Shown here: positions 7,668 to 59,100 of the stretch, piece after piece
How positions within the stretch are numbered: position 1 is the stretch's first letter
Layout of the letters: each line of letters begins with the position of its first letter
DNA from: an uncultured bacterium
Lineage (GTDB): Bacteria > Patescibacteriota > Minisyncoccia > UBA6257 > GWB1-50-10
Assembly (NCBI GenBank): GCA_963713955.1
Contig: OY970216.1
Span: forward strand, 296,850 to 360,849
Direction: 5' to 3'
Length of the DNA: 64,000 nt
Made by a program: the position numbers and the translations under genes
The notes under the pieces: generated by a model
What the model was told of the DNA's origin: nothing
The model's database searches: none
The model's input: only the letters and a program-made list of their open reading frames with translations

Positions 7668-8870
7668 CTATTTCTGCGCATTATAGATAGCTTGAATCTC
7701 AGCGGCGGATAAAACTCTACTATAGACGCGGACGTCATCAATTGAATAAATTGGGCTGCCAGAACCTCCACCGCCACCAATCGTCGCGTCCTGCTGACTA
7801 GGTACCCAAGAATTACTAATACTTCCAGAACCGACAAGCGCGCCGTTCACATAAACATAGCCCTTTTGATTAACTGTATCCCAAGCGACCGACACGAATA
7901 ACCAGGTATTGTTTGACATGCTTGGCTGCACAGCGAATTCATAGGCAGCTGAATCTTGGAATACGGCCTGCATGCTTCCTGGAGCACCATAATTATTTCT
8001 TACAAACAGATGGCTACGCGTATTATCCCAACCATCAAAAATAGGCCAACCAACGTTATTCCAACTGGCGGAATTCACCCAAAGGGTCAGCGTGCCCCTT
8101 TGAGGAAAACTTGAATTATACAAAGTGGGAATATTTACATACTGACTCGAGCTATTAGCATTAATAGTTAAACATCCGTTAACCTTGCAACTGGGAGCCC
8201 ATGTAGGGTTGCCTACCACCGTCCCCCCATTCCCATTCCCTGATCTGTCCCCCGGGTCTCCATCCAGCGGCCACCATCCTACTAATCCCTCACTCCTTCC
8301 AATAAGGGATAGGTCAGAACCGATCTCATACTTCCCAGGATCATAGCCTTGGTCTTGGGATGCAGTAGAATTGAGGTATTTCTGTGATTCCAAGGCACTG
8401 GACAAGGCATAGGAGCCTCCTGATACGTAGGTATAGTAGAGTCCAGTGCTTGTGGTATTCGTAGGGTCTATCGGGAGCTTGGATAAAGGGGATCCTGATG
8501 AAATAAGGGTGAGATTCACGGGAATCCAGCCTGTTCCGTCTACTCTTGTTGAGGAAGAGCTTGGAACACAGTGATAGGCCCATCCTGGGGGAGGAGAAGA
8601 CAGTCCCAGATTGGCACAGGTGGATGTGGTATCGGGAACTGATACGTAGAGGGTATTCGGAGTCCCTAAGGACTGGGTATATTGATCTGCTTGGAAGAGG
8701 GATAAGGCACTATTCAGGGCTGAAAGATCAGAGAGCCTGGTTGAATCTCTTCCTTGAGCTAAGAGCTGGGCGGGATTCAAGACCAAGACGACGGCGGTTG
8801 CAAGGACGGCTAAGATCGCGATCACGACCAGGAGCTCGATCAGAGTAAAAGATTCCCGAGAATGAGGCAT
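7668..8870 (-). CDS. type IV pilin-like protein (prepilin-type N-terminal domain) with C-terminal LamG/ConA-like domain, paralog 1
   Basis: SFTLIELLVVIAILAVLATAVV prepilin motif; C-terminal ...DDVRVYSRVLSAAEIQAIYNAQK typical of LamG_3 domains; start set at ATG 8868-8870 (MPHSRESFTLIEL). Confidence 0.75.
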   Translation of the reverse strand: MPHSRESFTLIELLVVIAILAVLATAVVLVLNPAQLLAQGRDSTRLSDLSALNSALSLFQADQYTQSLGTPNTLYVSVPDTTSTCANLGLSSPPPGWAYHCVPSSSSTRVDGTGWIPVNLTLISSGSPLSKLPIDPTNTTSTGLYYTYVSGGSYALSSALESQKYLNSTASQDQGYDPGKYEIGSDLSLIGRSEGLVGWWPLDGDPGDRSGNGNGGTVVGNPTWAPSCKVNGCLTINANSSSQYVNIPTLYNSSFPQRGTLTLWVNSASWNNVGWPIFDGWDNTRSHLFVRNNYGAPGSMQAVFQDSAAYEFAVQPSMSNNTWLFVSVAWDTVNQKGYVYVNGALVGSGSISNSWVPSQQDATIGGGGGSGSPIYSIDDVRVYSRVLSAAEIQAIYNAQK

Positions 8871-9252
8871 TTGATTGATTATAACATTATCTAGGGAAGG
8901 TTTGTTCTTCCTGCCCACCCAAAAGTTTTCCACAGGAGCTATTGACCTGAATTCCTTTTCCGGATATGATTATAAAAATGCAAAACTTAAGGTCGAATTC
9001 GATATTGTTCATCATCATTGCCCTCCTCCTTAGGAAGGGGACTTTGAGTTTTGCTAGAGCATAGAATTGTAAAGGAGAAATCGAATCAAAACTTAAAGCC
9101 CCCGACCGAAAGTCGAGGGCTTTTCGTTTCGGGACCCGAGATTTGTCCACTTGGCAAGCAGGTAAATCTTGGGCTCTGAAGGAAACTTCATTGTCCCAAG
9201 AGTTCTTTGTCAAACTGTTCACTTAAACAAAACACTAAGAAGGAGAAAAGTG

Positions 9253-9774
9253 ATGATTGCGATGACTACTGGCATCCAACCACGTATCGTCATTTCTGGA
9301 GAGACAGAAGACGGTATTGTTGGGAAAATACTTAACTATATAGCCGATCCTCCCCCTCCGGAACAGCGTCGTTATACGAAAAGGTTCTTTGGGTTGTGGC
9401 GTGAAGGAATATGTATGGGGAAGATTGTGAAACAAAAGAGAACGAGGAATGGTGGGGTTGAGGGGACTTTCGATGTTGCCCTTGAGATAGGCACAAGAGA
9501 GGCAGAGAAGAATATTTCCTTAGGCATCCTTTTGAGGGAAGTCCCAGGACTGAAGTTTAGCTTAAAGGATATGAGGAGAGACTCTTCAGGTTGGGTAGAG
9601 TTGCATATCGGCGGGGATGTAGATCGCCGGAAAATACCAAACATTGTGGACCTTATACTGGCTACTTATGTAACCAATCATAAGGAGACGCATCCTGTAG
9701 TGCCCGACAAGCCCGGAGGAAAAATTCAACGGTTTTGTTCCACCAGTGCTGGCAATCCTTTTGCGACGAAGTGA
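9253..9774 (+). CDS. hypothetical protein
   Basis: ORF 9169-9774 trimmed to the internal Met (MIAMTTGIQ); no family recognised; lies after an AT-rich intergenic stretch. Confidence 0.3.
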   Translation: MIAMTTGIQPRIVISGETEDGIVGKILNYIADPPPPEQRRYTKRFFGLWREGICMGKIVKQKRTRNGGVEGTFDVALEIGTREAEKNISLGILLREVPGLKFSLKDMRRDSSGWVELHIGGDVDRRKIPNIVDLILATYVTNHKETHPVVPDKPGGKIQRFCSTSAGNPFATK

Positions 9775-9897
9775 ACCGATTTTTTCTCTCGCGGGTAAAA
9801 AATACTCCGAGGGAACTTCTAACGAAAGCTGTGGTGACCCCGCAGCTTTTTTCCTTTTATTTGCCCAGAGGTGAAGAGTGATTTAAAATATTTGCAT

Positions 9898-10377
9898 ATG
9901 CAGAAAAATAAAACAAAAGCAGTGGCGTTAGTCGTCGTGTTAGTGGTAATAGTAGTCGCCCTGATCATCACGTTATCGGGGAGCAAAAATACGAATAACC
10001 AAGCGAATCAAAATCAAATGACGAACACAAATTCAAACGACAACCTTCAAGTAACGGATGAAGTCATGGGAACAGGCACGGAGGCGGTTGCGGGAGATCT
10101 CGTGACGGTGAACTACGTGGGAACGCTCGCGAATGGAACAGTCTTCGACGCGTCCGCGAGCCACGGGAATCAAGGTTTCACGTTCCTCTTGGGAGCGGGG
10201 CAAGTGATCAAGGGATGGGATGAAGGCGTTGCCGGCATGAAGGTCGGCGGCAAGCGGAAGCTTGTGATTCCCTCAGACCTGGCCTATGGGTCAAACGGTA
10301 TTCCGGGAGTGATCCCGCCGAACTCGACTTTGATTTTCGAAGTGGGGCTTTTGTCCGTTAAGCAAGCGGGGCAGTAA
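9898..10377 (+). CDS. FKBP-type peptidyl-prolyl cis-trans isomerase, membrane-anchored
   Basis: VTVNYVGTLANGTVFDAS...GAGQVIKGWDEGVAGMKVGGKRKLVIPSDLAYG is a canonical FKBP domain; N-terminal TM helix plus N/Q-rich linker. Confidence 0.8.
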   Translation: MQKNKTKAVALVVVLVVIVVALIITLSGSKNTNNQANQNQMTNTNSNDNLQVTDEVMGTGTEAVAGDLVTVNYVGTLANGTVFDASASHGNQGFTFLLGAGQVIKGWDEGVAGMKVGGKRKLVIPSDLAYGSNGIPGVIPPNSTLIFEVGLLSVKQAGQ

Positions 10378-10386
10378 ACTCATGAA

Positions 10387-11655
10387 ATGAAAAATTCTCT
10401 TTTAGGGAGAATAAAGAATTTAGGCAAAGACGTCGGTCCCGGCGTTATCACCGGCGCCGCCGACGATGATCCGTCTGGGATCTTGACCTACCTCCAGTCG
10501 GGCTTTTTGTACGGCTTCAAGATACTCTGGATGGCCGTTCTCGCCTTGCCCTTCATGATTTCGATTCAGGAAATGGCGGGAAGGATCGGCTATGTGACCG
10601 ACAAAGGGCTCATCAAAGTGATCAAGGACCACTATTCGAAGTGGCTCCTTTATTTCATCGCCGTCATTTCCGTCGTCGTCATAACCATGAACATCGGAGC
10701 GGATCTCCTCGCCGTCGGGACGGTTCTCGGGAATCTCATCCCCTTGCCCGTTCTTTTCTGGATTCCGTTCGTTGCGCTTGCCATCTTGGCTTTCACGATT
10801 TTCCTTTCCTATCCAAAATTCGCTAGAGTCCTCAAATGGCTGACCTTATCTCTTTTCTTCTACGTCGCAACCGTATTCACCGTAAAACTTGACTGGGGCG
10901 CGGTTCTTCAGGCAACTTTCCTGCCGCATATCGTCTTCGACAAAGATTTCATTCTGCTCTTTGCGGCGTTCTTCGGGACCACCATTTCGCCGTATTTGTT
11001 TTTCTGGCAGGCCGACGAGGAAGTCGAGGAGCGAGACGAAGTGAAAAGCGAAAGGAAACTCAAAAGGTTCCTCGTGACCAAAAACGAGCTGAAGCACATG
11101 CGAAAAGATACGGCTCTCGGGATGGTTTTCTCGGAAATCATAACGTGGTTCATCATCGTCGCGGCAGGCGGCCTCGCAGCCGTGAAGGGCCCGGCAGTCA
11201 TAGCGAATTTCAATCAGGCTTCCGCGGTCCTCCGGCCCCTCCTCGGCGAATGGGCTTTCGTCGTTTTCGCTCTGGGGATCGTGGGGACCGGCCTTCTCGC
11301 GATACCGGTGCTTTCGGGAAGCATCGGTTACATGCTCTCCGAAATATTCAACTGGACGGAAGGAATGAACAAAACGTGGAGAGAGGCAAGAAGTTTTTAC
11401 CTCGTCATAACGGCGGCAACTATTTCGGGGGTTGTCATGATGCTTTTAGGAGTTGACCCTATCGCGGCTCTGATTTACACGGCCGTTTTTTACACCGTCA
11501 TCACGCCGCCCATCGTTTACGTGATACTGAAAATCGCAAACAACAAGACGATCATGCGCGACAAGGTAAACGGACCTCTCACGAACGTTTTCGGGTGGCT
11601 GACGTTCGCTTTCGCGGTCATCGTTGTCGGTACCTACCTTTTCTCATTGTTCTGA
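10387..11655 (+). CDS. Nramp-superfamily divalent cation transporter (MntH/NRMT-like)
   Basis: N-terminal GPGVITGAADDDPSGI resembles the Nramp GPGxxxxxxxxDPGN motif; about 11 TM segments. Confidence 0.55.
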   Translation: MKNSLLGRIKNLGKDVGPGVITGAADDDPSGILTYLQSGFLYGFKILWMAVLALPFMISIQEMAGRIGYVTDKGLIKVIKDHYSKWLLYFIAVISVVVITMNIGADLLAVGTVLGNLIPLPVLFWIPFVALAILAFTIFLSYPKFARVLKWLTLSLFFYVATVFTVKLDWGAVLQATFLPHIVFDKDFILLFAAFFGTTISPYLFFWQADEEVEERDEVKSERKLKRFLVTKNELKHMRKDTALGMVFSEIITWFIIVAAGGLAAVKGPAVIANFNQASAVLRPLLGEWAFVVFALGIVGTGLLAIPVLSGSIGYMLSEIFNWTEGMNKTWREARSFYLVITAATISGVVMMLLGVDPIAALIYTAVFYTVITPPIVYVILKIANNKTIMRDKVNGPLTNVFGWLTFAFAVIVVGTYLFSLF

Positions 11656-11740
11656 TGTTCGTTCGCCGAACCATTGCGACAAAAACCCCTTCGTCGTCGG
11701 AGGGGTTTTTGTGTCAGGTAGTTGTTGTGGAAGATACCCT

Positions 11741-12085
11741 TTATAGCTTGCTTCTCGGAAGCCACGCAATGGCGCGGGTGGCGGTTACATCGGCTGCGTT
11801 GCGCCCCAGGAGGCTGTATACTTTGACCGGAAAACCGTCCTTGAGATCGGCGAGTAAGTAAGTATTACTCTTCGCGAGAACTTTTGTGTCGGAAACCGCG
11901 GTTGCGAGGTATGCCTGGTTGTTTCTCGCCGCGGTGAGCATCACGCCATTTGGTGTCGTGTTGAAGGCAGATTCACTTTCACGGGGTGCGGGAACGGTTG
12001 ACCACGCAAACGCGAAAGAAGAACTGAGGAGCATGCCTGCGATCAAGCTGCCGGTTCCGATGATTGCTTTCGTTTTACGATACAT
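11741..12085 (-). CDS. hypothetical small secreted protein
   Basis: Signal-peptide-like N-terminus (AIIGTGSLIAGMLLSSSFAFAW); no family. Confidence 0.35.
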   Translation of the reverse strand: MYRKTKAIIGTGSLIAGMLLSSSFAFAWSTVPAPRESESAFNTTPNGVMLTAARNNQAYLATAVSDTKVLAKSNTYLLADLKDGFPVKVYSLLGRNAADVTATRAIAWLPRSKL

Positions 12086-12200
12086 GGTTGAAGTCTGCTT
12101 ATACCCCCTCCGGCCTTGTTGACGGTGGATTTCACCAGCGTCTTTAGGAAAATACGCCGGTTGCCGGTCGAATGTTACAGAATGCCTGGCAACTCCCCAT

Positions 12201-12258
12201 ACCTAAATGAGAGTGAAAAATATGACGCCAACAAGAAGACGTTGCTCTCATTTAGGTG
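12201..12258 (+). promoter_or_regulatory. 13-bp perfect inverted repeat (acctaaatgagag / ctctcatttaggt) with 32-nt loop in the hisS 5' leader
   Basis: Read directly from the sequence; ends 22 nt upstream of the hisS ATG. Confidence 0.3.
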
Positions 12259-12279
12259 TAGGGGTAAAATTAATACGTT

Positions 12280-13617
12280 ATGGCAAGCAGATTAAAACCG
12301 AAATTGCCTTCCGGATTCAAGGATTACTTGCCGGATGAAGAAATAAGGAGAAGCGAAATGCTCGATGTGATCAAGAGAAACTTTGAGCTGTTCGGGTTTT
12401 TGCCGCTCGATACGCCTGCCGTGGAAGAGGAGAAAACGCTCACGGGAGGCGATCCGGAATTCAAAAAACAGATATTTAGAATCAAACGGGAAAGCGGTGC
12501 CGAAAATCTGGCGCTCCGTTTCGATCTCACGGTTCCTTTGGCTCGCGTGGTGTCTCTCTACGCCGGCAAGATAACTTTCCCCTTCAAGAGGTACCAGGTG
12601 GGAAGCGTGTGGAGAGGGGAAAAGGCGCAGGCCGGCCGATTCAGGGAATTCCTCCAGTTCGACGCCGACATCGTGGGATCAGCGAGCGTTCTCGCGGATG
12701 CCGAAATCATAGCCCTCATGAACCAGGTCATGCTTTCCCTGGGGTTCCAGAATTTCCTCATAAAAATAAGCAACCGGAAAGTGTTAAGCGGACTCCCGGA
12801 ATATGCTGGGTTTTCTCGCGGGAAATTGGATGCCGTTCTGAGAGTCGTCGACAAATTGGATAAAATCGGGGAAGCCGGCGTCTCAAAAGAGCTTACCTCA
12901 AAGAACGGGTGCGGCCTTTCAAAGCAAGAGGCCCGAGCGGTAATGGGTTTCTTCGGCCTGAGGGCAAAGAACAATTTCGAGGTTTTGCGTCTCGCGGGAG
13001 AAAAACTGAGAAGCGGGAGTTCGAAGAAAGGCCTTGCCGAGATGGAAGAACTCGTGGGTCACCTCGAGGCGCTCGGCGTTCCGGCTGAGCGGTGGGCGTT
13101 CGATTTCGCGACGGTCAGGGGTCTTGCGTACTACACAGGTTTTGTTTTTGAAACGATTCTCCTTGATCTGCCCGGGATCGGCAGCGTTTTTTCCGGCGGA
13201 AGGTACGATAACCTGATTTCGAATCTCGGGGGATCAAGCTTACCGGCCGTCGGCGTTTCAGTCGGAGTGGATCGAATGTTTTACGCGATGACGGAGCTCA
13301 GAATTTCCGCCGAAGGGGGAAGAAAAGCGAAAGTCTTGGTTCTGAATTTCGACGAGAAAACATGTCGGGATGCCGAGAAAACCGTTTCCCTTCTCAGGGA
13401 AAACGGAATTCCGTCGGAAATTTACCTCGGGAACGAAAAAGGGCTGAAAGGACAAATCTCATACGCCCTCAAAAACAACTACGCACTCGCCGTCATGGTG
13501 GGCGCGGACGAAGTTTCGAAGGGCATCGTGAGTATTAAAAGTTTCAAGGCCTATAAACAGTTTGGGGTGAAACGGGAGAATTTGGTGTCCGAGGTGAAGA
13601 AACTTTTGGAACAGTAG
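12280..13617 (+). CDS. hisS: histidyl-tRNA synthetase
   Basis: Class II aaRS motif 2 (RFREFLQFDADIVG) and the HisRS-specific GGRYDNL motif; C-terminal anticodon-binding domain present. Confidence 0.85.
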   Translation: MASRLKPKLPSGFKDYLPDEEIRRSEMLDVIKRNFELFGFLPLDTPAVEEEKTLTGGDPEFKKQIFRIKRESGAENLALRFDLTVPLARVVSLYAGKITFPFKRYQVGSVWRGEKAQAGRFREFLQFDADIVGSASVLADAEIIALMNQVMLSLGFQNFLIKISNRKVLSGLPEYAGFSRGKLDAVLRVVDKLDKIGEAGVSKELTSKNGCGLSKQEARAVMGFFGLRAKNNFEVLRLAGEKLRSGSSKKGLAEMEELVGHLEALGVPAERWAFDFATVRGLAYYTGFVFETILLDLPGIGSVFSGGRYDNLISNLGGSSLPAVGVSVGVDRMFYAMTELRISAEGGRKAKVLVLNFDEKTCRDAEKTVSLLRENGIPSEIYLGNEKGLKGQISYALKNNYALAVMVGADEVSKGIVSIKSFKAYKQFGVKRENLVSEVKKLLEQ

Positions 13618-28321: not shown

Positions 28322-28384
28322 AAAACCTCCCGAGCACTGAAAGCGCTTGGGAGGTCGTGTTGTTTCTGTTATAATAAAGGAGAA

Positions 28385-29590
28385 ATGAATCCCCACTACC
28401 GAAGCAGCTTCACCCTGATCGAACTCCTGGTCGTGATTGCGATCCTTGCCGTCTTAGCGACTGCCGTCGTCTTGGTCTTGAACCCTTCCCAGCTTCTTGC
28501 TCAAGGAAGAGACTCCACGAGATTGTCTGATCTTGCAGCCCTCCAGAGCTCCCTTGCTCTCTTCCAGGCAGATCAATGGAATCAATCCTTAGGAACCGCC
28601 TCAACAACATATCTCTCAATCCCCGATTCATCACCAACCTGCCAGAATACCGGCATCGTTCCTCCTCCAGGATGGAGTTATCACTGTTCTCCCGCATCAA
28701 CCTATGCCAAGACCGATGGATCCGGCTGGATCCCCCTGAACTTCACCCTCATATCGTCAGGAAGCCCCCTCTCAAAGCTTCCCATCGATCCCGTGAACAC
28801 TACCTCCTCCGGTCTCTACTACACCTATACCCCCGGAGGATCGTATGCCATCTCCGGCATGATGGAATCGCAGAAGTACCTCCCAACTGCAGCCAATGAC
28901 CAGGGCTATGATCCGGGACGCTATGAAGCCGGCTCCGACATCTCCCTCATTGCGAAGAGTGAAGGCCTAGTCGGCTGGTGGCCCCTCGATGGGAGCGCGA
29001 ATGACATGTCTGGGAACGGGAATCAGGGGACGTGGTTTGGATCCCTTATCGGAGGTTCCCACTATACCCAGGGGAAGGTAGGATCTGCAGGGAATTTCAA
29101 TGGAAGTGACAGTTATATAGATCTCAACTACAACCCCGCGATTGGTATGGGAAGTTTCTCTATCAGTCTATGGTTTAATTCTCAGGATAACACTGGCGTC
29201 TTGGGTAATCTCCAATTTTTGCTGAATAAATACCATGCGAGTGGCAGCAGATTTGATATCTATTTGACTGCGGACGGGACCGGTTTGTGTTACTACGTCC
29301 AAGGTGACAACGGTTACTTTGGCGGTTGCCCAGCCGTAGTGGCAAGAGGTGCGTGGAACTATGCGGTATTGGTTAGGGATGCATTGAGCGGTAAAGTCAG
29401 TTTATATCTCAATGGTTCTTTGGTGAGCAGTCAAAGTGACACAAGCGGGAACATACCGGTGACCGGCGGCTTTGTCTATGGGAATCAAGACAATCAACGA
29501 TGGGCGAAGGGTTTCGGTGATGACCTTCGCATTTACAACCGTGCTCTCTCCGCCGCGGAGATTGCTGCCATCTATAACGCCCAGCGATAG
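28385..29590 (+). CDS. type IV pilin-like protein with C-terminal LamG/ConA-like domain, paralog 2
   Basis: MNPHYRSSFTLIELLVVIAILAVLATAVV; the first ~200 aa are about 80% identical to paralogs 1 and 3; C-terminal DDLRIYNRALSAAEIAAIYNAQR. Confidence 0.75.
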   Translation: MNPHYRSSFTLIELLVVIAILAVLATAVVLVLNPSQLLAQGRDSTRLSDLAALQSSLALFQADQWNQSLGTASTTYLSIPDSSPTCQNTGIVPPPGWSYHCSPASTYAKTDGSGWIPLNFTLISSGSPLSKLPIDPVNTTSSGLYYTYTPGGSYAISGMMESQKYLPTAANDQGYDPGRYEAGSDISLIAKSEGLVGWWPLDGSANDMSGNGNQGTWFGSLIGGSHYTQGKVGSAGNFNGSDSYIDLNYNPAIGMGSFSISLWFNSQDNTGVLGNLQFLLNKYHASGSRFDIYLTADGTGLCYYVQGDNGYFGGCPAVVARGAWNYAVLVRDALSGKVSLYLNGSLVSSQSDTSGNIPVTGGFVYGNQDNQRWAKGFGDDLRIYNRALSAAEIAAIYNAQR

Positions 29591-29643
29591 TATCAAGTAT
29601 CATGTAGCAAGTGGAAAGTATTAAATCCCATCTACTTGATACT
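29589..29643. terminator. conserved 3' hairpin shared by pilin paralogs 2 and 3 (11-bp perfect stem agtatcaagta / tacttgatact, about 33-nt loop)
   Basis: Sits between the convergent pilin-2 and recG stops; the same stem sequence follows pilin paralog 3 at 59027-59100. Confidence 0.45.
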
Positions 29644-29670
29644 TTCTACTTAGTACTTCCTACCTGTCGA

Positions 29671-36718: not shown

Positions 36719-37426
36719 ATGAAAAAATTGACGATCGGAGTCGGAGTTGTCGCGGGAGTTGCTGTTTTGGCGACGATGCTTGTCGCGAGTGCCCAGACGG
36801 CGGCGACGACAACGGCCGGGACGCCAAGTCAGTCCGAACAGATGGTACTGCAGATCGGACCGGCGGGGAAAACGCTTCTCCGTGGGACAATCGGCTCCGT
36901 CTCAAGCGGGGTCCTCACAGTGAGAAGCTGGGGTGGAGATTGGACGGTGAATGTTGGTTCCTCGGCCCAAGTTCTCCCGGCGGCGGCCAGCAACAACTTG
37001 AGCCAATTCAAGACGGGTGATTTCGTTGGTGTCCAGGGAACGGTATCACAAAGCGCCGCTTGGACTGTTGACGCGACGCTGGTTCGGGATTGGACGTATC
37101 GGCAAGCAGTGACCCAACAGGAGAAGCAGAACGTACAATCCGCGCGCCAGACGATTCAGAGCGGGACGCCCAAGAACTACGTCGGCGTTGCGGCGAATGT
37201 GAATGGCAGTTCCTTCACCCTGACGGTCGGGGGAACGGCGTACACGGTGAACGTTGCGTCCGGTGCGGAAGTGGTAAATAAGAATTGGGTAACGATACCT
37301 CTCACGAACATTCAGAATAACGATAACGTGCGCGTCTGGGGCGTGAATGCGAGTAGCACCATCACGGCGCAAATCGTGCGGGACGTTTCGATTCCGGCGA
37401 CTTCTCCGCCGAATCCGTCTCACTAG
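36719..37426 (+). CDS. secreted protein with two tandem ~75-aa beta-rich repeats (DUF5666-like)
   Basis: Signal peptide; repeat 1 GTIGSVSSGVLTVRSWGGDWTVNVGSS..., repeat 2 VGVAANVNGSSFTLTVGGTAYTVNVASG... Confidence 0.5.
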   Translation: MKKLTIGVGVVAGVAVLATMLVASAQTAATTTAGTPSQSEQMVLQIGPAGKTLLRGTIGSVSSGVLTVRSWGGDWTVNVGSSAQVLPAAASNNLSQFKTGDFVGVQGTVSQSAAWTVDATLVRDWTYRQAVTQQEKQNVQSARQTIQSGTPKNYVGVAANVNGSSFTLTVGGTAYTVNVASGAEVVNKNWVTIPLTNIQNNDNVRVWGVNASSTITAQIVRDVSIPATSPPNPSH

Positions 37427-48451: not shown

Positions 48452-50206
48452 CTACACAACTTCCGCTTGATAGCACTGATCGCAATATATCCTTAGTTTT
48501 CTTCCTGGGTTGTACGCTGTCTGAATCTTTTTGGAACATCTCAAACAGGTAGAATCCACGAGTTTATATGGGTTCCTTTTCTTGAATCTGTCCATGAGGC
48601 GCACCTGCGGGTGCAGCCTGGGAATCGGGATTGAATGTTTCCGGTAGAACTCCAATTCTGATTTTATGATTCTGAACGGCTTTTTAGACTCCTCGCATAT
48701 GATAGCAAAGTTCAGAATATCGTCTGAAGCGTCTTTGATGTTCGTGGGCGTCTTGTCAAGTACTTTGAGATCCATCGACTCTATTCTGAGGTTCTCCGGT
48801 TTCAGATTGACGTCCATTTCTCTCTGTTCTTCCGGACTCAGGGGCGAAATGGCTTGAGCATAGGTGTCCTCGTAGTAGAAAAATGAATCATGGAGCGGAA
48901 GGAACTCTCCATATACGCCGTCCGAAACCATGCGGGTTTTAATCGTGTCCACTAAGCGCCAGTATTCGTCTTCGGAATACTGCTTGTTTAAGATGCAATA
49001 CTTCTTCTTTTTCAATCCCGAGCATCCGAAGCAGTAACGGCAATCGGAGCACTCAAAGGAGTATTCGACCTCTGTGCAGTCGTTAACGAAGTAAGACGAG
49101 ATCACTTTGTTCACCGATAACCCTTCGATGGTGTTGTAACATTGTTCGCCCGGCCCGAATATAGTCACATCCATACAATCTTCCGCGCCGATGAAATCCT
49201 GGCTGTATCGGACGTTCTCGTTTTTGTAGAAGGTCAAAACCCACTTGGCGCTCATGCCATGAAAGGACTGGAAACAATTTTTGCAGTCCCTCAGATGGTC
49301 GCCCGTCGAATTGGGAGAACTGATGGTGAGCGTCGCCCTGAAGATAGCGTTCGTATCCATGAAGCTGCTGAACTTCTTCCGGAACTCTTCAGAGACCGCG
49401 CTGTCTCCCAAGTCTATGCGAAAAATTCTCTCTTTGTAATCTGCTTCTGAAAGCTGTTCGTTGAGATAACAGAACTTCTTATTGCGCAGGTTGACGCATC
49501 CGAAACAATCCTGGCAGTTATGGCAGTCGAATAGAAATGCCGAATTGGAGCAGTTACTGGAATTTTGGATGTACTTCGAATTATAGATATGATCCGAATC
49601 TATGATTTCATAGGAATACTGAACGTGATCGGCGCCGAGGAGATCGATTGAATCTTGGGAATAAAGAACCCAGAGGCCATAGGAGATGTTTTCGGCTATG
49701 CCGATCGTGGACGAGAGATAGCAGTTCTTTATGCTGAGGCTATCGACCGTGTATTCGCTATTCACAACGTCCTTGTTGTATCTCGCCAATGCTCTGTGAG
49801 GAACGTCTTGTATTAACTTGAGGAGCTGATCTTGGAACTTTCCGTTGGGGTCGTAGTCACGACCGAAAGACATCGGGTCCCATTGGGCAGGATTCCACCA
49901 ATATTGATTGTCGTAGATTTTGTATTTGTTCTCCTCGCTTATTTGGGATACGACTCTTTCCTCGGGGTGAGCCGAGCACCCTTTTTTGTAAAACTGAAAG
50001 ATATTGGCCATCATAGCCATCCGCTTTCTCATCCGGCAATCGGGGCATTCTCGGGGCGGCAATATATTCAGTTTTTCTACAAACCTAATATCTTCTTCGG
50101 ACAATTCGAACTCCTCGTTAGAGTTTGAGCATCTCCTTTTACCCGGGGTGGTCGTTTTCCAAACCTCTCGCAACACTTCATCGAACTTCGGTGTCTTTGA
50201 ATCCAT
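48452..50206 (-). CDS. hypothetical Cys-rich protein with internal beta-helix-like repeats and terminal zinc-ribbon-like motifs
   Basis: 584 aa; repeated units SNCSNSAFLFDCHNCQDCFGCVNLRNKKFCYLNEQLSEADY and YSFECSDCRYCFGCSGLKKKKYCILNKQYSEDEY; N-terminal CPDC and C-terminal CLRC..CDQC; no family recognised. Confidence 0.45.
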   Translation of the reverse strand: MDSKTPKFDEVLREVWKTTTPGKRRCSNSNEEFELSEEDIRFVEKLNILPPRECPDCRMRKRMAMMANIFQFYKKGCSAHPEERVVSQISEENKYKIYDNQYWWNPAQWDPMSFGRDYDPNGKFQDQLLKLIQDVPHRALARYNKDVVNSEYTVDSLSIKNCYLSSTIGIAENISYGLWVLYSQDSIDLLGADHVQYSYEIIDSDHIYNSKYIQNSSNCSNSAFLFDCHNCQDCFGCVNLRNKKFCYLNEQLSEADYKERIFRIDLGDSAVSEEFRKKFSSFMDTNAIFRATLTISSPNSTGDHLRDCKNCFQSFHGMSAKWVLTFYKNENVRYSQDFIGAEDCMDVTIFGPGEQCYNTIEGLSVNKVISSYFVNDCTEVEYSFECSDCRYCFGCSGLKKKKYCILNKQYSEDEYWRLVDTIKTRMVSDGVYGEFLPLHDSFFYYEDTYAQAISPLSPEEQREMDVNLKPENLRIESMDLKVLDKTPTNIKDASDDILNFAIICEESKKPFRIIKSELEFYRKHSIPIPRLHPQVRLMDRFKKRNPYKLVDSTCLRCSKKIQTAYNPGRKLRIYCDQCYQAEVV

Positions 50207-51183: not shown

Positions 51184-51972
51184 TTAATTTTCGTCGTCGA
51201 TGAACAACTCATAATACGAAAGCATGATAGGGGTTCCCCAAACGATCCAGAAAGTAAATTCCTCAAAAGGGAATGTCAATCCGAAAAGCTGGATTGTCCC
51301 TATGTATTGTCCCGGGAAGCGCCATTGGTTCAGTTTAAGAGCCGTGAGTTCGAAGCTCAAGAACAAAAAAATGTTGAAAACATCTGCTTTCAGTAACTTT
51401 CCGACCATATGGGGGTCTTTGAAGATGACATAAAAGAATGGCAATGCTCCCATAAAACCTATTGCAAGGTATGCATAGTGCCATTGGAGAAGCGAAGGGG
51501 CCGTGAGAAAAATACCCACGACAAGTACAAAAAGTATCAGGGCAAAAATAGCCGCTTTCTTGAAACGCTTCGACATTTTCTCCGATCGCTCGTGTTCGAA
51601 AAAGTGTTCGTAGTAGATAATAGTGAACGATATCCAGAATACATACCAGATAAGCACATCAATGGGCACAAGACCGAATATCTTATTTGGGAAAACAAGT
51701 TGATTTTGCGGTGCCCATGACCACGCTTTATTGAATTCTGCCAAGAGGTCCACAATGAATAGGGTAATAACCCCCGTCGCCAGCGTCGCACCGAGACGTT
51801 TCAATTGTTTTGGCTTGCGGATAAAGAGGTAGAAAGCGGGAATCGCGAAGAAAACGATTGTAGAAGTCAAAAATATTGCCTTGAAATAGAGGATAAGAGG
51901 TATGGAGAAAAGTACCCACCCGACGATGACTAGGAAGTCAACCCGTACCTTATTTTTGAAAATCGCATCCAT
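51184..51972 (-). CDS. polytopic membrane protein (about 7 TM)
   Basis: ORF 51184-52104 trimmed to Met MDAIFKN, which has a GAGGAG SD and TATAAT upstream; the N-terminal extension would overlap conserved motif B. Confidence 0.45.
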   Translation of the reverse strand: MDAIFKNKVRVDFLVIVGWVLFSIPLILYFKAIFLTSTIVFFAIPAFYLFIRKPKQLKRLGATLATGVITLFIVDLLAEFNKAWSWAPQNQLVFPNKIFGLVPIDVLIWYVFWISFTIIYYEHFFEHERSEKMSKRFKKAAIFALILFVLVVGIFLTAPSLLQWHYAYLAIGFMGALPFFYVIFKDPHMVGKLLKADVFNIFLFLSFELTALKLNQWRFPGQYIGTIQLFGLTFPFEEFTFWIVWGTPIMLSYYELFIDDEN

Positions 51973-52009
51973 TTTTTGCTCCTCTGATACTCTTATTATA
52001 CAAACAAAC

Positions 52010-52035
52010 ACCCACCTTGTAAGGTGGGTGTTTTT
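52010..52035. terminator. palindromic hairpin cacccacc-ttgtaa-ggtgggtg plus T-run (terminator-like); related half-sites at 50258-50277 and 53694-53719
   Basis: 8-bp perfect stem followed by ttttt on the plus strand and ttgtttgt on the minus strand. Confidence 0.4.
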
Positions 52036-52078
52036 CCTAAGTAAGCAACAGTAAGCAACTTGTTGCGAAGCCTGAACG

Positions 52079-52137
52079 CTGTTCGAACTTGCGGACTTGC
52101 TCAACTTCTGCCGTTCAGTGAACTTGTGAAATCATTT
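52079..52137 (-). promoter_or_regulatory. conserved ~59-nt upstream motif, copy B
   Basis: ..cacaagUUCAcugaacggcagaagUUGAGCaaguccgcaaGUUCGAACag..; compensatory changes relative to copy A at a putative 5-bp stem (A-U to G-C, C-G to U.G). Confidence 0.35.
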
Positions 52138-52929: not shown

Positions 52930-53108
52930 AGGTGTCAAGAGCGTATCTTCCAGATTTTTTACCCCCTTGCTATCTTTTCGTATATACCCCCTCTCCCTCA
53001 TCGGGGAGAGTAAACTTAACCAGGGCTTCTCTGCGAGAGAGTTGCTGGAAACCGACGATGCATGTTATCCTGATTCAAAAGGCCGGTAAATAAGAAAATG
53101 CTAATAAA

Positions 53109-53849: not shown

Positions 53850-54095
53850 ATGCAAAGACTAGTTTCGGTTACAGAGAGTGTATGCGAATCCATGAAGGTA
53901 CCCTTGTGGGTAATGGAAGCTGCCGTTGGGAAGCAAGTGCCGGCTGAGGAAGGACCGAACGAGGAATTGTGGCTCAAGAAAATCGATTTGATCTCGGTTC
54001 TTGAAAAGAAAAGTGAGCGTCAGGCGGCAGACTGGATCCGCAGGAATGTAAACCAAGATACCATTGTAGTGCCTCAAGTATTACTTCAGGCGTAG
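53850..54095 (+). CDS. hypothetical small protein
   Basis: 81 aa. Confidence 0.3.
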   Translation: MQRLVSVTESVCESMKVPLWVMEAAVGKQVPAEEGPNEELWLKKIDLISVLEKKSERQAADWIRRNVNQDTIVVPQVLLQA

Positions 54096-54193
54096 GCGTA
54101 CACAGAGCAGGCCCAGGCAGTTGTAGCCGGACCTCCCTTATTTTATACCCCCGATCTCATGAGGTGGATATTTTTGCCGAAGTGGGCAACTTG

Positions 54194-54265
54194 TTGCGGG
54201 GGCAGGATTCGAACCTGCGACCTCCGGGTTATGGGCCCGACGAGCGACCGCTGCTCCTCCCCGCG
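54194..54265 (-). tRNA. initiator tRNA-fMet (anticodon CAT)
   Basis: cgcgggg 5' end with a C1-A72 mismatch; three G-C pairs closing the anticodon stem (tcggg-cccataa-cccgg); nearly colinear with my recollection of E. coli tRNA-fMet. Confidence 0.8.
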
Positions 54266-54333
54266 GTTCATAAAACAAATGAATTATACTTGTAAAGAGG
54301 GTATAAGTCAATTTATAATTGAATAAATCATTT

Positions 54334-54407
54334 GGCTGGGTAGCTCAGTCGGTTAGAGCGTGGCCCTCATAAAGCCGAGGTCGTGGGTTCGAATCCCACC
54401 CCAGCCA
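54334..54407 (+). tRNA. tRNA-Met or tRNA-Ile2 (anticodon CAT)
   Basis: Acceptor ggctggg/cccagcc, D-arm gctc-agtcggtta-gagc, anticodon loop cuCAUaa, T-arm gtggg-ttcgaat-cccac; 74 nt. Confidence 0.75.
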
Positions 54408-54429
54408 CAAAAATGTATATCATAAAAAT

Positions 54430-55410
54430 ATGAATTTAAAGGAAATAGAAAACAAATCGGCGCTGGAGATAGAAAAGGCGAAAGACGCCCGTGAGTTGGA
54501 AGCCGCAAAGATCAAATATCTCGGGAGAAACGGGTTCCTTTCGAAGTTCATGAAAACAATACCTTCGCTTCCCTTGGAGGAACGGAAGGTCGTCGGAAAG
54601 GAGGCGAACGGGGTCAAGAATAATATCGAGAGATTTCTCATTGCGAAAGCTGGTTCGTTCAAGGAAAAGGCGACGGAGGAATTTTTCGACGTCACGCGGC
54701 CGGGCAAGAAGATCAAGCTGGGCCATGAGCATCCTTTGGCCAAAGTCGACGAAGAGGTAAGAAGAATATTCACCTCGATGAATTTTTCCGTAGTTTGGGG
54801 TCCCGAGCTCGAAACCGAGTATTACAACTTTGACGCCTTAAACATTCCCGCTAACCATCCGGCGAGGGATATGTGGGACACGTTCTGGGTGAAAACGTGG
54901 ACGGACAAATTGCTTCTCCGGACGCACACGAGTCCCGTCCAGGTGCGGTACATGGAGAAACACGAGCCGCCGTTCCAGATCATCGTCCCCGGCCGCGTTT
55001 TCCGGTACGAAGCGACTGACGCATCGCACGAAATAAATTTCTACCAGGTGGAGGGGCTCATGGTGGGGCCGAACGTCACGCTGGCCAACTTGAAATTCGT
55101 CATCGAGAAATTTTTCGAGAAGTTTTTCGGTGAATCCGGGAGACGGATAGAATTCAGGTATCGGCCGAGCTATTTCCCGTTCACCGAGCCGAGCCTGGAG
55201 GTCGATATCAAGATCGGCGGCAAGTGGCTTGAAGTCATAGGGGCGGGGATGGTCCATCGGAACGTTTTCGACGCCGTCCGCTACAACCCGGATACAGTGC
55301 AGGGCTTCGCGTTCGGGATGGGCCTCGACCGCCTCGCGATGATAAAGTACCAGATCCCGGACATTCGCATGTTCTACGAGGGTGACTTGCGGTTCATTCA
55401 TCAATTTTAA
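54430..55410 (+). CDS. pheS: phenylalanyl-tRNA synthetase alpha subunit
   Basis: Class II motifs ...FRYRPSYFPFTEPSLEVDI... and GAGMVHRNV; 326 aa. Confidence 0.9.
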   Translation: MNLKEIENKSALEIEKAKDARELEAAKIKYLGRNGFLSKFMKTIPSLPLEERKVVGKEANGVKNNIERFLIAKAGSFKEKATEEFFDVTRPGKKIKLGHEHPLAKVDEEVRRIFTSMNFSVVWGPELETEYYNFDALNIPANHPARDMWDTFWVKTWTDKLLLRTHTSPVQVRYMEKHEPPFQIIVPGRVFRYEATDASHEINFYQVEGLMVGPNVTLANLKFVIEKFFEKFFGESGRRIEFRYRPSYFPFTEPSLEVDIKIGGKWLEVIGAGMVHRNVFDAVRYNPDTVQGFAFGMGLDRLAMIKYQIPDIRMFYEGDLRFIHQF

Positions 55411-55415
55411 AAGCA

Positions 55416-55754
55416 ATGGAAACGCCCAACGGAAAAATTGAAGATGAGAGGTTTCATGAACTCCAAAGATTCAGAGAAGAGATTGAGGCTATCAAGAAAA
55501 GCACTCCCTCCCTCTCCGAAGTCAACGTTGATGAATTGACGGATGAGGACATGGAACTCTGGAAACTTAAAGAAAGCGGAAATGCAACCAGGGAGGCTAT
55601 CGATGCACATAGAAAATCGATCTCTAATGAGAAAAGGATTTTACGGGAAGAAATTCCTAGGAGTCGCAGTTTATTCTTTCAATATGTCGCCAATGAAGTG
55701 AGCCAAAGGATAACAAGAGAGGAGTTGGCCAAAAGGAGAAGAAATAAAAAATAA
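55416..55754 (+). CDS. hypothetical charged/coiled-coil protein inserted between pheS and pheT
   Basis: 112 aa; K/E/R-rich; no family. Confidence 0.4.
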   Translation: METPNGKIEDERFHELQRFREEIEAIKKSTPSLSEVNVDELTDEDMELWKLKESGNATREAIDAHRKSISNEKRILREEIPRSRSLFFQYVANEVSQRITREELAKRRRNKK

Positions 55755-55763
55755 AGTGGAACG

Positions 55764-57680
55764 ATGAAATTTTCGTACCCATTGATAAAAAAATTGGTCC
55801 CGGGGGTGAAAAGCAAAGGTCAGATCATTGATACCCTGAATTTCCATTCCTACGAGACCGAGGACGCGCCGGGCGACACGTTCGAGGTCAAACTGCCGGC
55901 GAACCGATTTTCCGATTCAGCGTCCCACATCGGCGTCGCGCGGGAAGTTGCTACAGCCCTGAACCTCGGTTTCAAAGAAAGTGCGGGGGAGAAAGTAAGA
56001 CCGGGGAAAACAAAACCGGATTTTTCCGTCACCGTTGCCGAGAAAAAACTCTGTCCGCGATACGTCGCCTGGAGGTTTAATAATATTAAGGTCAAAGATT
56101 CACCGGCCTGGCTGACGCAGATCTTGAAGGATTGCGGACTCCGCCCGATAAACAACGTCGTCGACATTATGAATTACGCGATGCTTTTGACGGGCCAGCC
56201 GCTCCACGCTTTCGATTTCGATAAGCTCGAGGGAGGCGAGGTGAAAATCAGAATGGCGAAGGGCGAAGCGATGACCACCATCGACGGACGTGCTTTGAAG
56301 CTCGGGAAAAATGTTTTGGTCATAGCAGACAAGAATCGGCCGATCGCCCTCGCGGGCATCAAAGGCGGCAAGGATACGGAGGTTGACGAGAAAACCAAGA
56401 GAATTCTCGTCGAAGCGGCAAGCTTCGAACCTTCCTTGATATACCGGACGTCCAAGGAATTGGGGCTTTCAACGGACGCATCCCAGCGATTTTCACATAA
56501 CCTGAGCTTGGAGTTGCCGCTCTCGGGAATCGCCAAAGCCGCTGAGATGCTCGTGGATCTTGCCGGGGCGCGGCCCGGTTCCAGATTCGATTCTTATCTG
56601 AAACAAATCCCGAAGAGAATACTCAAATTTGACATAGAGAAGTTCAACAAATTCATCGGTACGGATTTGAGCGGCAAGGAAGCAACCGCGTACTTGAAGC
56701 GGCTCGGCTTCAAAAGCTTGCGCGGAGACGAGTGGGAAGTGCCACCGTTCCGGACGGACGTCGAGAATCACGAAGATCTTTTCGAAGAAGTAGCCCGTAT
56801 GTACGGGTACGGCAGGATTCCGGCGAAGGCGCCGGAAGTGGCACTCTCGCCGTCGGGCACCGAAGATCGCGTTATCCTGAAGGATAAAATAAGACATCTC
56901 CTCCAGGGGTTCGGATTCGATGAAGTTTATACGTATTCCATGATTTCGGTGCGGGATGCCGGGGGGAAGGGAAGGAAAACGGATAATTTGTATGAAGTGT
57001 CGAATCCGATAAGCGAAGAATTCCAGTATCTGAGGCCGACGCTTGAAGTCAACCTGGCAAAGGTCGTGGCGGACAATTTCAGGTTTTCCGACACGGCGAA
57101 GATTTTTGAAATTGGGAACACATTCAGAAAGATAGGCAAGGAAACTGGCGAGCAAATGTCCTTCGGGGTCGTTTTTGCCGATAAGAAGGAAGAAAGATTT
57201 TTCGAGCTCAAAGGGATCCTCGACGAGCTTTTCAAGAAGGTCGGTCTCACTGATTATAACTTCGAGGAAGGCGGGAATTTTTTGAAACTTGAATCGAACG
57301 GAGAAATTTTTGGCTTTCTAAAAAATGCCAAGGTGGAAGGAGGGGAAATGTCCTTCGCCGAGATTAACTTTGATAAGCTGGCTGAGCTGGTAGAAGGCGA
57401 ATTTGAATATGAGCCGCTGCCTAAGTATCCTTCGGTGGTGCGGGACATCTCCATCCGCGTGCCCGGCGGCGCGAAGATAGGCGACATCATTCAGGAAATA
57501 CAGGACTCGAACCTGAAACTTATAGAGGATGTTGATCTGGTGGATGAGTATAAATCGAACATGACACTCAGGATCGTATTCCAATCTGAAGAAAGAACGT
57601 TGACGGCGGAAGAAGTGAATAGGGAGATGACTAAGATCCAAAAAACGCTGGAGACGAAGTTTGGGGCCACGATACGGTGA
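55764..57680 (+). CDS. pheT: phenylalanyl-tRNA synthetase beta subunit (short form)
   Basis: B3/B4 and B5 domains plus C-terminal anticodon-binding-like domain; 638 aa, lacks the long N-terminal tRNA-binding domain of typical bacterial PheT. Confidence 0.85.
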   Translation: MKFSYPLIKKLVPGVKSKGQIIDTLNFHSYETEDAPGDTFEVKLPANRFSDSASHIGVAREVATALNLGFKESAGEKVRPGKTKPDFSVTVAEKKLCPRYVAWRFNNIKVKDSPAWLTQILKDCGLRPINNVVDIMNYAMLLTGQPLHAFDFDKLEGGEVKIRMAKGEAMTTIDGRALKLGKNVLVIADKNRPIALAGIKGGKDTEVDEKTKRILVEAASFEPSLIYRTSKELGLSTDASQRFSHNLSLELPLSGIAKAAEMLVDLAGARPGSRFDSYLKQIPKRILKFDIEKFNKFIGTDLSGKEATAYLKRLGFKSLRGDEWEVPPFRTDVENHEDLFEEVARMYGYGRIPAKAPEVALSPSGTEDRVILKDKIRHLLQGFGFDEVYTYSMISVRDAGGKGRKTDNLYEVSNPISEEFQYLRPTLEVNLAKVVADNFRFSDTAKIFEIGNTFRKIGKETGEQMSFGVVFADKKEERFFELKGILDELFKKVGLTDYNFEEGGNFLKLESNGEIFGFLKNAKVEGGEMSFAEINFDKLAELVEGEFEYEPLPKYPSVVRDISIRVPGGAKIGDIIQEIQDSNLKLIEDVDLVDEYKSNMTLRIVFQSEERTLTAEEVNREMTKIQKTLETKFGATIR

Positions 57681-57701
57681 AGATGATGTTATAATGAGGG
57701 G

Positions 57702-59027
57702 ATGATGCCCCCTCATCTCCAATCTTCCTTCACCCTCATCGAACTCCTGGTCGTGACCCCGATACGAAAGGCGTTCCACGCCTTCGTACGGGGCAAGTCG
57801 CCATCCAATCCCAAGGCTTCTTTCACGTTAATTGAACTTCTCGTCGTCATTGCTATTCTCGCAGTCCTCGCGACCGCCGTCGTCCTCGTCCTGAACCCCG
57901 CCCAGCTCCTTGCCCAAGGAAGAGACTCCACAAGATTGTCTGATCTTGCAGCCTTGAACAGTGCCCTCTCCTTGTTCCAAGTTGATGCCTATACCCAGTC
58001 CCTGGGGACTCCGAATACAGTCTATATATCTGTTCCTGACAATGCTTCCTCTACCTGTGGATCTCTTGGTCTTCCTTCCTTGCCTTCCCCCTGGGCCTAT
58101 CACTGTGTTCCCGCCTCTTCTTCCACGAAGGTAGACGGAACAGGCTGGATTCCTGTGAATCTCACCCTTATATCGTCAGGATCCCCTTTATCCAAGCTCC
58201 CGATTGATCCCGTGAATACCACAAGCACTGGACTCTACTATACCTACGTATCAGGAGGCTCCTATGAGATTACTTCAGCTATGGAGTCTCAGAAGTACCG
58301 ATTAGGAGGTTCTACTGATGCAGTCTCTACCGATGGAGGCCCGTATCCTGATTTGAGGGAAATAGGCTCCAATCTCTCTCTCCTCCCCATAGACTATGGA
58401 GATACGAGTCTTGTGGGATATTGGCCCTTCAATGAAGGGACGGGCCTAACTGCCTATGATGCGAGTGGACATGGGAATAACGGGGCGTTAAGCGCTTCTC
58501 CTCCGGCTTGGATCACAGGGAAATTAGGTGGGGCCTTGAGCTTTAACGGGAGTAATAACTATGTGAGTTACGCTTCAAGTAGTGGCAATGTCTACGGGCC
58601 GATTACGGTCGCTGCTTGGGTGTACGTCAATCCAAACAGCACTTATCAATTTGTAATCCAACGGGGAACAAGCGGAGCCAACGTTAACTGTCAGTATTCT
58701 TTGTATGTTGTTACTACCAATGTTTTGAGATTCAGTATCGATGCCGGAGCCAATGAGTACCCCGCAAATTCTTCGGTGCTGACCGCAGGATGGTACTATG
58801 TTGTTGGCACGTGGACTGGTTCTGGTCCGGCCGCCATCTATATCAATGGTGTGAACGCCGGCAACAGCGCCTCTGTTTCTGGGACTCAAAATAGCATCAG
58901 TAATTTTATTATGGGCAATAGTGGAGGGGGCGGTTACCCGTTTAATGGTTATCTTGACGATGTCCGCGTCTACAATAGAGCTTTATCCGCCGCCGAGATT
59001 CAGGCGATCTACAACGCCCAAAAATAA
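57702..59027 (+). CDS. type IV pilin-like protein with C-terminal LamG/ConA-like domain, paralog 3 (duplicated prepilin leader segment)
   Basis: SSFTLIELLVV-TPIRKAFHAFVRGKSPSNPKA-SFTLIELLVVIAILAV; C-terminal DDVRVYNRALSAAEIQAIYNAQK. Confidence 0.7.
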   Translation: MMPPHLQSSFTLIELLVVTPIRKAFHAFVRGKSPSNPKASFTLIELLVVIAILAVLATAVVLVLNPAQLLAQGRDSTRLSDLAALNSALSLFQVDAYTQSLGTPNTVYISVPDNASSTCGSLGLPSLPSPWAYHCVPASSSTKVDGTGWIPVNLTLISSGSPLSKLPIDPVNTTSTGLYYTYVSGGSYEITSAMESQKYRLGGSTDAVSTDGGPYPDLREIGSNLSLLPIDYGDTSLVGYWPFNEGTGLTAYDASGHGNNGALSASPPAWITGKLGGALSFNGSNNYVSYASSSGNVYGPITVAAWVYVNPNSTYQFVIQRGTSGANVNCQYSLYVVTTNVLRFSIDAGANEYPANSSVLTAGWYYVVGTWTGSGPAAIYINGVNAGNSASVSGTQNSISNFIMGNSGGGGYPFNGYLDDVRVYNRALSAAEIQAIYNAQK

Positions 59028-59100
59028 GTATCAAGTATAAAGTAGAATGTATAAAGTATAATTTGCGCTTTGAATTTTTGGTTTTTCTCTACTTGATACT
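59027..59100 (+). terminator. conserved 3' hairpin of pilin paralog 3 (agtatcaagtat ... tacttgatact)
   Basis: Same 11-bp stem as at 29589-29643, with a longer loop. Confidence 0.45.

Follow-up and report, generated by a model that had tools for sequence, protein, structure and literature searches.

Attachment to other cells is essential for Patescibacteria; among their attachment organelles, type IV pili (T4P) are the best supported. Here, we describe three genes, designated copies A, B and C, in a 64,000-nt stretch of contig OY970216.1 from an uncultured patescibacterium (hereafter, the window). Each encodes a prepilin in which a pilin module of ~195 amino acids (aa), the stalk, is fused to a LamG-type head (Table 1). 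We consider it likely that these proteins are bimodular type IV pilins of a multigene family that is widespread in Paceibacteria (candidate phyla radiation (CPR)/Patescibacteria) and that operates by the mechanism proposed below; the family probably functions in attachment to other cells. The source contig (804,691 bp, taken as approximating the genome) carries at least 14 full-length paralogs, which together comprise ~17 kb or ~2% of its length. A 0.8-Mb genome that spends this share of its DNA on lectin-headed pilins offers a concrete set of candidate host-recognition molecules. Modular pilins with a PF13385 head have already been described; three features stand out here, namely a large dispersed family with concerted stalks, a systematic non-Gly residue at position -1, and a hairpin insert.

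A pilin stalk joined to a lectin-like head

The preliminary description of this DNA claimed three pilin-like paralogs that combine a prepilin N-terminus with a LamG/concanavalin A (ConA)-like jelly-roll, and both elements proved genuine by Pfam, structure model and fold matches. All three genes are intact open reading frames (ORFs) whose products score above the Pfam gathering thresholds (21.2 bits for N_methyl, 27.6 bits for Laminin_G_3) in both modules: N_methyl (PF07963) at 28.8–40.3 bits (copy A 28.8, copy C 40.3) and Laminin_G_3 (PF13385) at 62–97 bits (copy A 62, copy C 97.4), the latter spanning profile positions 1–151 of 151. With both domains in each copy, the proteins have a modular-pilin architecture. 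The prepilin segment SFTLIELLVVIAILAVLATAVVLVLNP.QLLAQGRDSTRLSDL differs very little among copies A, B and C, which are ~57% identical over the whole protein, and a six-frame scan of the window for F[TS]L[IVL]E found this motif in these three genes only, twice in copy C. The N-termini have the features of a class III signal, with a hydrophilic leader, ~21 hydrophobic residues and Glu at +5. Phe+1, Thr+2, Leu+3 and Glu+5 do not vary among 112 homologs, which also share a conserved Cys pair in the pilin head.

AlphaFold2, run with these 112 homologs, gave a confident model of copy B (predicted local distance difference test, pLDDT, 91; predicted template modelling score, pTM, 0.85), which shows an extended N-terminal α1 helix of 53 residues (11–63) packed into a pilin fold with an antiparallel β-sheet head (74–183). 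The pilin module joins the LamG domain directly, and this domain is a jelly-roll β-sandwich (195–384) followed by a terminal helix. Both the profile score and the fold place the head in the Laminin_G_3/ConA-like superfamily. The best fold match found by Foldseek is the carbohydrate-binding domain 4 of AbnA (E 4.5e-13), which was crystallised in complex with ligand, and the head also resembles the Hc-N lectin-like domains of clostridial neurotoxins; the Foldseek probability is 1.00 to 5hon, 1diw and 3v0a. All three copies end in the tail DDVR(V/I)Y.R.LSAAEI.AIYNAQ(K/R) (DDVRVYNRALSAAEI...), as had been pointed out. This shared motif is no special signature, as it is simply part of the LamG_3 framework: the last strand of the Pfam profile, followed by the terminal helix (residues 390–400 in the model).

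The ConA-like lectin/glucanase superfamily includes glycoside hydrolases (GHs), and the best structural match is itself a domain of an arabinanase, which raises the idea that the heads are glucanase-type enzymes, brought by the pilus or a pseudopilus to host cell-wall polysaccharide that they degrade. We regard this as highly improbable. The matched AbnA domain is one that we take to be non-catalytic and carbohydrate-binding, Pfam assigns Laminin_G_3 and no GH family, and no residue of the LamG core is conserved across the paralogs in the way a catalytic site requires.

Elsewhere in the window, a gene for a DsbA-like thioredoxin (3556–4350, +) adjoins a VKOR gene (4304–4768, +), a disulfide-forming pair that fits the conserved Cys pair of the pilin head.

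A large family with conserved stalks and divergent heads

The proposed combination of a conserved ~200-aa stalk with variable heads applies to a family even larger than initially noted. A first search retrieved 12 matches on the source contig, including copy B, to which copies A and C are added. Among these 14 paralogs, mean identity is 96% in the signal peptide and α1, 73% in the pilin head, 55% in the first LamG strands and 22% (range 11–34%) in the LamG core, before rising to 76% in the C-terminal tail. The sharp identity breakpoint that was expected between stalk and head is therefore replaced by a gradient. Stalks resemble each other more within the genome (0.77) than they do those of other genomes (0.55), while LamG cores are equally divergent within (0.22) and between genomes (0.21). 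Few heads have recognisable counterparts in other genomes, one example being P0020 versus P0014 at 0.53. On the same contig, outside the window, two further members are probably decaying: P0053 is C-terminally truncated, ending in ...GLIVMDRFL with the conserved LamG tail gone, and P0208 is a 106-aa N-terminal fragment.

The stalk is conserved as protein and not as DNA. Its third-codon positions are only ~50% identical, and its overall DNA identity ranges from 62 to 80%; exact nucleotide matches extend to no more than 20 nt (A–B), 21 nt (B–C) and 53 nt (A–C). Owing to these values, the long 5′ homologies of ~600 nt that had been proposed to support shuffling of the heads are weak as a recombination substrate, and a recent duplication with identical DNA is ruled out by the third-codon identity. 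Signs of sequence exchange were seen solely within the stalk. The P0005 stalk resembles copy C and P0019 in its first segment (0.91) and is identical to P0008 in its second, while the P0020 stalk is 0.96 identical to P0008 in the first segment and only 0.42 in the second.

Comparison with an independent ENA assembly of the same population (L136 around copy A, P0025 for copy C) gave a related signal. The two assemblies have 0 differences in 1801 nt around copy B and 5 differences in 7203 nt around copy A, all of them within a 185-nt stretch of the copy A stalk; by our own estimate, the chance of such clustering is ~2e-7. One of the five (I123L) creates the ‘LTLLSS’ state also present in paralogs P0003, P0004, P0005 and P0008. 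Together with the mosaic stalks, this cluster suggests gene conversion between paralog stalks; the cluster itself would be a short tract of gene conversion or else an assembly or polishing artefact driven by the paralogs. The second assembly encodes the same copy B and copy C proteins, the latter as P0025, and a copy A that differs at two residues. As the heads of copies A, B and C are the same in both assemblies, head swapping was not observed between them. Such signs of exchange between paralog stalks go beyond routine annotation.

Two other explanations of the family were rejected. The genes are no pseudogenes, given their intact ORFs, their promoter boxes (see below) and the identity of copies B and C in the second assembly. 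Likewise, neither a diversity-generating retroelement nor a shufflon accounts for the heads, as the window contains no reverse transcriptase or recombinase and the variation spans the whole domain with no defined variable region.

Relatives are linked to pilus machinery

T4P are well conserved in Patescibacteria (PMC11623550), and pilBCDMT clusters have been reported in Paceibacteria (PMC9763046). A scan of the GTDB species representatives, which do not include the source genome, matched the stalk to 80 loci in Paceibacteria lineages (Jorgensen-, Wolfe-, Lipton-, Colwell-, Harrison- and Yonathbacteria, and Minisyncoccia), the best of them at 72% identity. In these relatives, the affiliation of the family with pili is supported by physical linkage: a PilB-like ATPase lies near the homolog in 21 of the 80 loci. 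A typical operon consists of a response regulator, one to four short pilins (185–250 aa, KG|FTLIELL), T2SSE, T2SSF and large modular minor pilins. Homologs of the window stalk include the short pilins whose genes immediately precede pilB–pilC, and stand-alone versions are 45–64% identical. Three such operon pilins (L051:1495–2061, L064:9995–10603 and L081:9995–10564) are 32–64% identical over the whole pilin module, sharing the α1 sequence and the conserved G-W/P-D-P head motifs; they differ from the window proteins in having no LamG domain, in their length, in their Gly at -1 and in their position directly upstream of pilB.

One operon of L051, the closest relative with PilB, encodes, in this order, two short pilins with Gly at -1 (KG|F), a small membrane protein, PilB, PilC and, directly after pilC, a 406-aa LamG-fused member of the family (RSS|F). 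LamG-fused members are mostly dispersed from the machinery, however, as is the case for 8 of 10 and for all three in the window.

Side observations from these operons concern components other than the LamG-fused pilins. At least six Paceibacteria T4P operons encode, between their pilin gene(s) and pilB, a conserved polytopic membrane protein of ~195–225 aa (Table 1). This protein has invariant W, F, K, E, P and R residues, and without a Pfam family or an invariant Asp it is ruled out as an A24 prepilin peptidase; it appears to be an uncharacterised part of these operons. A regular-expression search of the related operons for the A24 prepilin peptidase motif likewise found none. Downstream of pilC in L064 lie two giant genes, which show the extent of modular pilin architecture in this clade: a 1248-aa modular minor pilin with N_methyl, five fn3, DUF1554 and endostatin-like domains (L064:13628–17374), and a 630-aa protein with two Laminin_G_3 domains and a pilin-like N-terminus (QSLMEIL) that has no N_methyl hit (L064:17480–19372).

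A non-canonical residue at the cleavage site

Copies A, B and C carry Ser at -1 and so deviate from the bacterial Gly(-1) rule. The preliminary description had remarked on this Ser as non-canonical, and it turns out to be real and the norm of the family instead of a quirk of one genome. Among 117 LamG-fused homologs, the residue at -1 is Ser in 71, Gly in 27 and Ala in 19, compared to Gly in 40/40 short family pilins of the GTDB loci, 21 of which are encoded directly upstream of pilB. Non-Gly residues are accordingly found in 90/117 (77%) of the LamG-fused proteins versus 0/40 short pilins (Fisher p = 1e-19). Given these counts and the literature rule of Gly (or Ala) at this position, the preference of the modular class for Ser/Ala is both systematic and non-canonical. 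Ser/Ala at -1 could reduce processing, resulting in low stoichiometry, could reflect a peptidase of wider specificity in this lineage, or could mean that no cleavage occurs. Being restricted to the modular class and never seen in operon pilins, it bears on both prepilin-peptidase specificity and minor-pilin dosage.

How the heads may be displayed

In the mechanism that we propose, the prepilins would insert into the membrane, where a prepilin peptidase is predicted to cleave them after Ser(-1). T4P machinery encoded elsewhere in the genome would polymerise the subunits through their common α1 helix, thereby generating a pilus that displays the LamG head for binding glycans or other ligands on the host surface. 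The paralogs would then offer a range of binding specificities mounted on the same stalk, with purifying selection and short gene conversion keeping the stalk compatible with the filament core. Ser/Ala at -1, as opposed to the Gly of operon pilins, would plausibly lower processing and hold these bulky subunits at minor-pilin stoichiometry.

Several points weigh against this reading. In agreement with the original remark that the window lacks pilus machinery, Pfam annotation of ~40 of its ORFs gave housekeeping families only, with no pilB, pilC or pilD, and when the PilB of L051 was used as a query, no PilB from the source contig was present among the 120 best matches, all at least 60% identical. 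Gly(-1) is said to ‘invariably’ end bacterial leaders and to be ‘absolutely critical’ for processing (PMC4471445), and for PilD, Gly or Ala at -1 is cited (PMC3244431); the predicted cleavage after Ser would depart from both statements. The lectin activity of the LamG heads is predicted from fold similarity, and the cluster of five differences in copy A could be an artefact of multi-copy stalk sequence, as mentioned above. Finally, the interchangeable heads and the tip location suggested in the preliminary description are conjectural, and a position along the shaft would be an alternative to the latter.

The requirement for Gly and the distance of most members from the machinery would also be expected if the proteins were surface-anchored lectins, in which Ser(-1) blocks cleavage and leaves an uncleaved signal anchor, or which form a short, bindosome-like pseudopilus. 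The archaeal bindosome indeed consists of sugar-binding proteins with class III signals (PMC4471445), and the enrichment of non-Gly residues in LamG-fused members over short pilins is in line with a block in cleavage. We nevertheless find such anchoring unlikely. Glu+5 is invariant and α1 is 96% identical among the paralogs, a polymerisation interface for which a mere anchor has no need; the pilin head is conserved as well and is homologous to that of operon pilins. Furthermore, a Ser(-1) member is encoded inside the pilB–pilC operon of L051, and Ala is accepted by the bacterial peptidases PilD and ComC (PMC3244431). For the Ser(-1) proteins themselves, pilus incorporation is the reading we prefer. 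Archaeal class III peptidases accept small residues (Ala, Ser) at -1.

If the subunits are polymerised, they might also be major-type subunits that co-polymerise into the shaft, resulting in a filament coated with mixed lectin domains instead of one bearing rare tip adhesins. Their pilin module is full-size (~190 aa), retains Glu+5 and is homologous to the putative major pilins encoded next to pilB, and every copy has a consensus extended -10 box. Moreover, a query with the N-terminal part alone retrieved mostly short stand-alone pilins of other genomes, and the only top match from the 804-kb contig was the 106-aa fragment P0208; this homolog list ends at ~45% identity, however, and a divergent major pilin could be missed. 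A shaft of this kind seems quite unlikely to us, as a 200-aa globular domain on each subunit would be sterically demanding and the non-canonical -1 residue hints at less processing. In the L051 operon, short pilins with Gly(-1) take the major-pilin position, and the LamG-fused member follows pilC, in the place of a minor pilin.

Relation to known modular pilins

The closest precedent is the survey of modular pilins by Raynaud et al. 2021 (PMC8179133), in which the combination of N_methyl and PF13385 is among the 15 commonest architectures, CPR examples included. As in the window proteins, an IPR012902/N_methyl signal and pilin module are fused there to Laminin_G_3, with a predicted function in pilus-displayed carbohydrate binding. 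The full-size stalk, the at least 14 dispersed paralogs in a 0.8-Mb genome, the mosaic stalks and the Ser/Ala at -1 are not described in that survey.

For PilC of Streptococcus sanguinis, glycan binding by a ConA-like lectin module has been shown experimentally and its tip location has been modelled (PMC9934059). PilC likewise combines a pilin with a ConA-like lectin module, and relatives of the present family share its T4P gene context. However, PilC has a short pilin moiety and an immunoglobulin (Ig)-like module, in contrast to the full-size pilin that joins LamG directly here, and it is a single operon gene as opposed to a dispersed multigene family. Orthology to PilC is ruled out by the full-size stalk, the missing Ig module and the absence of PilC from both the PDB sequence matches and the top 50 Foldseek hits.

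Within the Patescibacteria, lectin-like minor pilins are implicated in glycan-dependent, sugar-inhibitable host binding in Nanosynbacter lyticus TM7x (PMC11623550). These proteins, PilX1 and PilX2, are T4P minor pilins with carbohydrate-binding-like C-termini as well, although they stem from Saccharimonadia and not Paceibacteria, their heads are CBM_E1-like and CV39L-like instead of LamG_3, and no large family has been described for them.

Constant N-terminal pilin regions with alternative C-termini, and recombination among copies, are known from the R64 shufflon (PilV C-termini) and from Neisseria pilE/pilS. Unlike in those systems, each gene copy in the window is complete, with a promoter box and a start codon of its own, and the window contains no recombinase, sfx-type repeat or silent cassette.

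Expression signals and 3′ elements

Each of the three genes is preceded by a perfect extended -10 box (TGTTATAAT; Table 1), and these account for 3 of the 7 TGnTATAAT sites in the window. From their sequence, the copies appear to be independent transcription units. With the boxes lying 6–9 nt from the start codons, the 5′ leaders of the transcripts are probably very short or absent. In other paralogs, the translated upstream sequence (CYNK.., P0004) suggests that the -10 box is part of the duplicated unit.

At the 3′ side, a hairpin had been noted for two of the three genes, which was confirmed for copies B and C. Their inverted repeats share an identical 20-nt right arm (CTACTTGATACTTTCTACTT), for which 0 matches are expected by chance; copy A has no such repeat. 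Each element is made up of a variable spacer flanked by inverted, heptamer-like AAGTA(T/G) repeats, has no U-tract, and may act as a bidirectional terminator or protein-binding site.

A hairpin insert with tandem prepilin motifs in copy C

The leader of copy C contains two prepilin motifs in tandem, a feature overlooked in the preliminary description: a first, truncated motif is separated from the second, complete one by a 66-nt in-frame insert, which would extend the leader to 40 aa if the second site is cleaved. The insert contains a hairpin that folds at -29.3 kcal/mol (z = -4.25), and paralog P0003 of the same genome has the same insert. The first motif of copy C is identical to that of L082 at 24/27 nt and to copy C's own second motif at 18/27 nt. 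This closer match between lineages than within the gene suggests that it is the DNA or RNA that is conserved. Similarly, the flanks GTCGTGACCC...GGGCAAGTCGCCATC also occur in an unrelated groundwater lineage (P0036, P0040; L082, L087, L122), where the shared flank bases are read in another frame (TRLRPSDYGRASRHRG versus TPIRKAFHAFVRGKSPS).

The only other copy of the hairpin among the collected loci lies, together with the motif, at the end of Wolfebacteria contig L012, and its distal stem differs by compensatory changes. The L082-type insert folds no better than shuffled sequence (z = +0.54), and the conserved hairpin is consequently not universal. Searches with the insert gave no match above noise in Rfam and 0 hits in a viral scan. 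A pattern scan of metagenomes returned 53 hits, only 2 of which were real (L087 and L122, both of the L082 type), the rest being chance matches in unrelated genes.

Possible identities of the insert are an insertion element, a regulatory hairpin, or a site or scar of recombination. A bolder combination, to which we give little credence, is that the family is a host-recognition repertoire shaped by concerted evolution, with stalks homogenised by gene conversion and hyperdiverse heads, in which the unit of motif, hairpin and GGGCAAGTCGCCATC, shared at the nucleotide level by distant Paceibacteria and read in different frames, is mobile or recombinogenic and grafts promoter and leader onto pilin bodies, and in which Ser(-1) is a tuned, peptidase-specific signal. 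If true, lectin pilins would be redeployed in a cassette-like manner and Ser(-1) would set their stoichiometry.

Feature coordinates and neighbouring genes

Table 1. Coordinates of the pilin genes, their associated elements and related features in other loci
Feature	Position	Strand	Details
Copy A, 400-aa bimodular prepilin	7668–8870	-	intact ORF, Pfam, alignment; leader MPHSRES|F
Copy A, pilin module	~8292–8870	-	
Copy A, LamG module	7668–8291	-	
Copy A, stretch with all 5 inter-assembly differences	8403–8587	-	185 nt in the pilin module; candidate gene-conversion tract
Copy A, extended -10 box	8878–8886	-	TGTTATAAT; 7 nt upstream of start
Copy B, extended -10 box	28367–28375	+	TGTTATAAT; -35-like TTGGGA; 9 nt upstream of start
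Copy B, 401-aa bimodular prepilin	28385–29590	+	ORF; leader MNPHYRSS|F
Copy B, pilin module	28385–28966	+	
Copy B, LamG module	28967–29590	+	
Copy B, 3′ inverted repeat	29589–29643 (repeat); 29591–29651 (3′ element)	+	AGTATCAAGTA...TACTTGATACT; convergent with recG
Copy C, extended -10 box	57687–57695	+	TGTTATAAT; 6 nt upstream of start
Copy C, 441-aa bimodular prepilin	57702–59027	+	ORF, Pfam; 40-aa leader holds the first, truncated prepilin motif
Copy C, first prepilin motif	57729–57755	+	FTLIELLVV, after SS; truncated
Copy C, in-frame insert	57756–57821	+	66 nt, TPIRKAFHAFVRGKSPSNPKAS; hairpin 57757–57793, then GCAAGTCGCCATC
Copy C, second prepilin motif	from 57822	+	complete; continues into copy C
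Copy C, 3′ inverted repeat	59027–59100 (repeat); 59028–59108 (3′ element)	+	AGTATCAAGTA...TACTTGATACT
Unit related to the copy C insert	L082:587–664; L012:13076–13137		
Polytopic membrane protein	L051:2824–3408; L049:3588–4175; L053:1589–2248; L055:10662–11321; L070:10121–10777; L071:11808–12407		

The neighbours of the three genes in the window include HisRS, UDG, a P-type ATPase, UvrD, a MacB-type ABC system, TGT and RecG, as well as a CCA-adding enzyme, an AddAB-like helicase-nuclease, GatA, PheT, an M23 peptidase and SecDF. Five further ORFs (235–584 aa) have no Pfam family: 48452–50206 (-), 60370–61392 (-), 51184–52104 (-), 36719–37426 (+) and 1874–2590 (+). The only Pfam signal among them is a weak zinc-finger match in the 584-aa protein.

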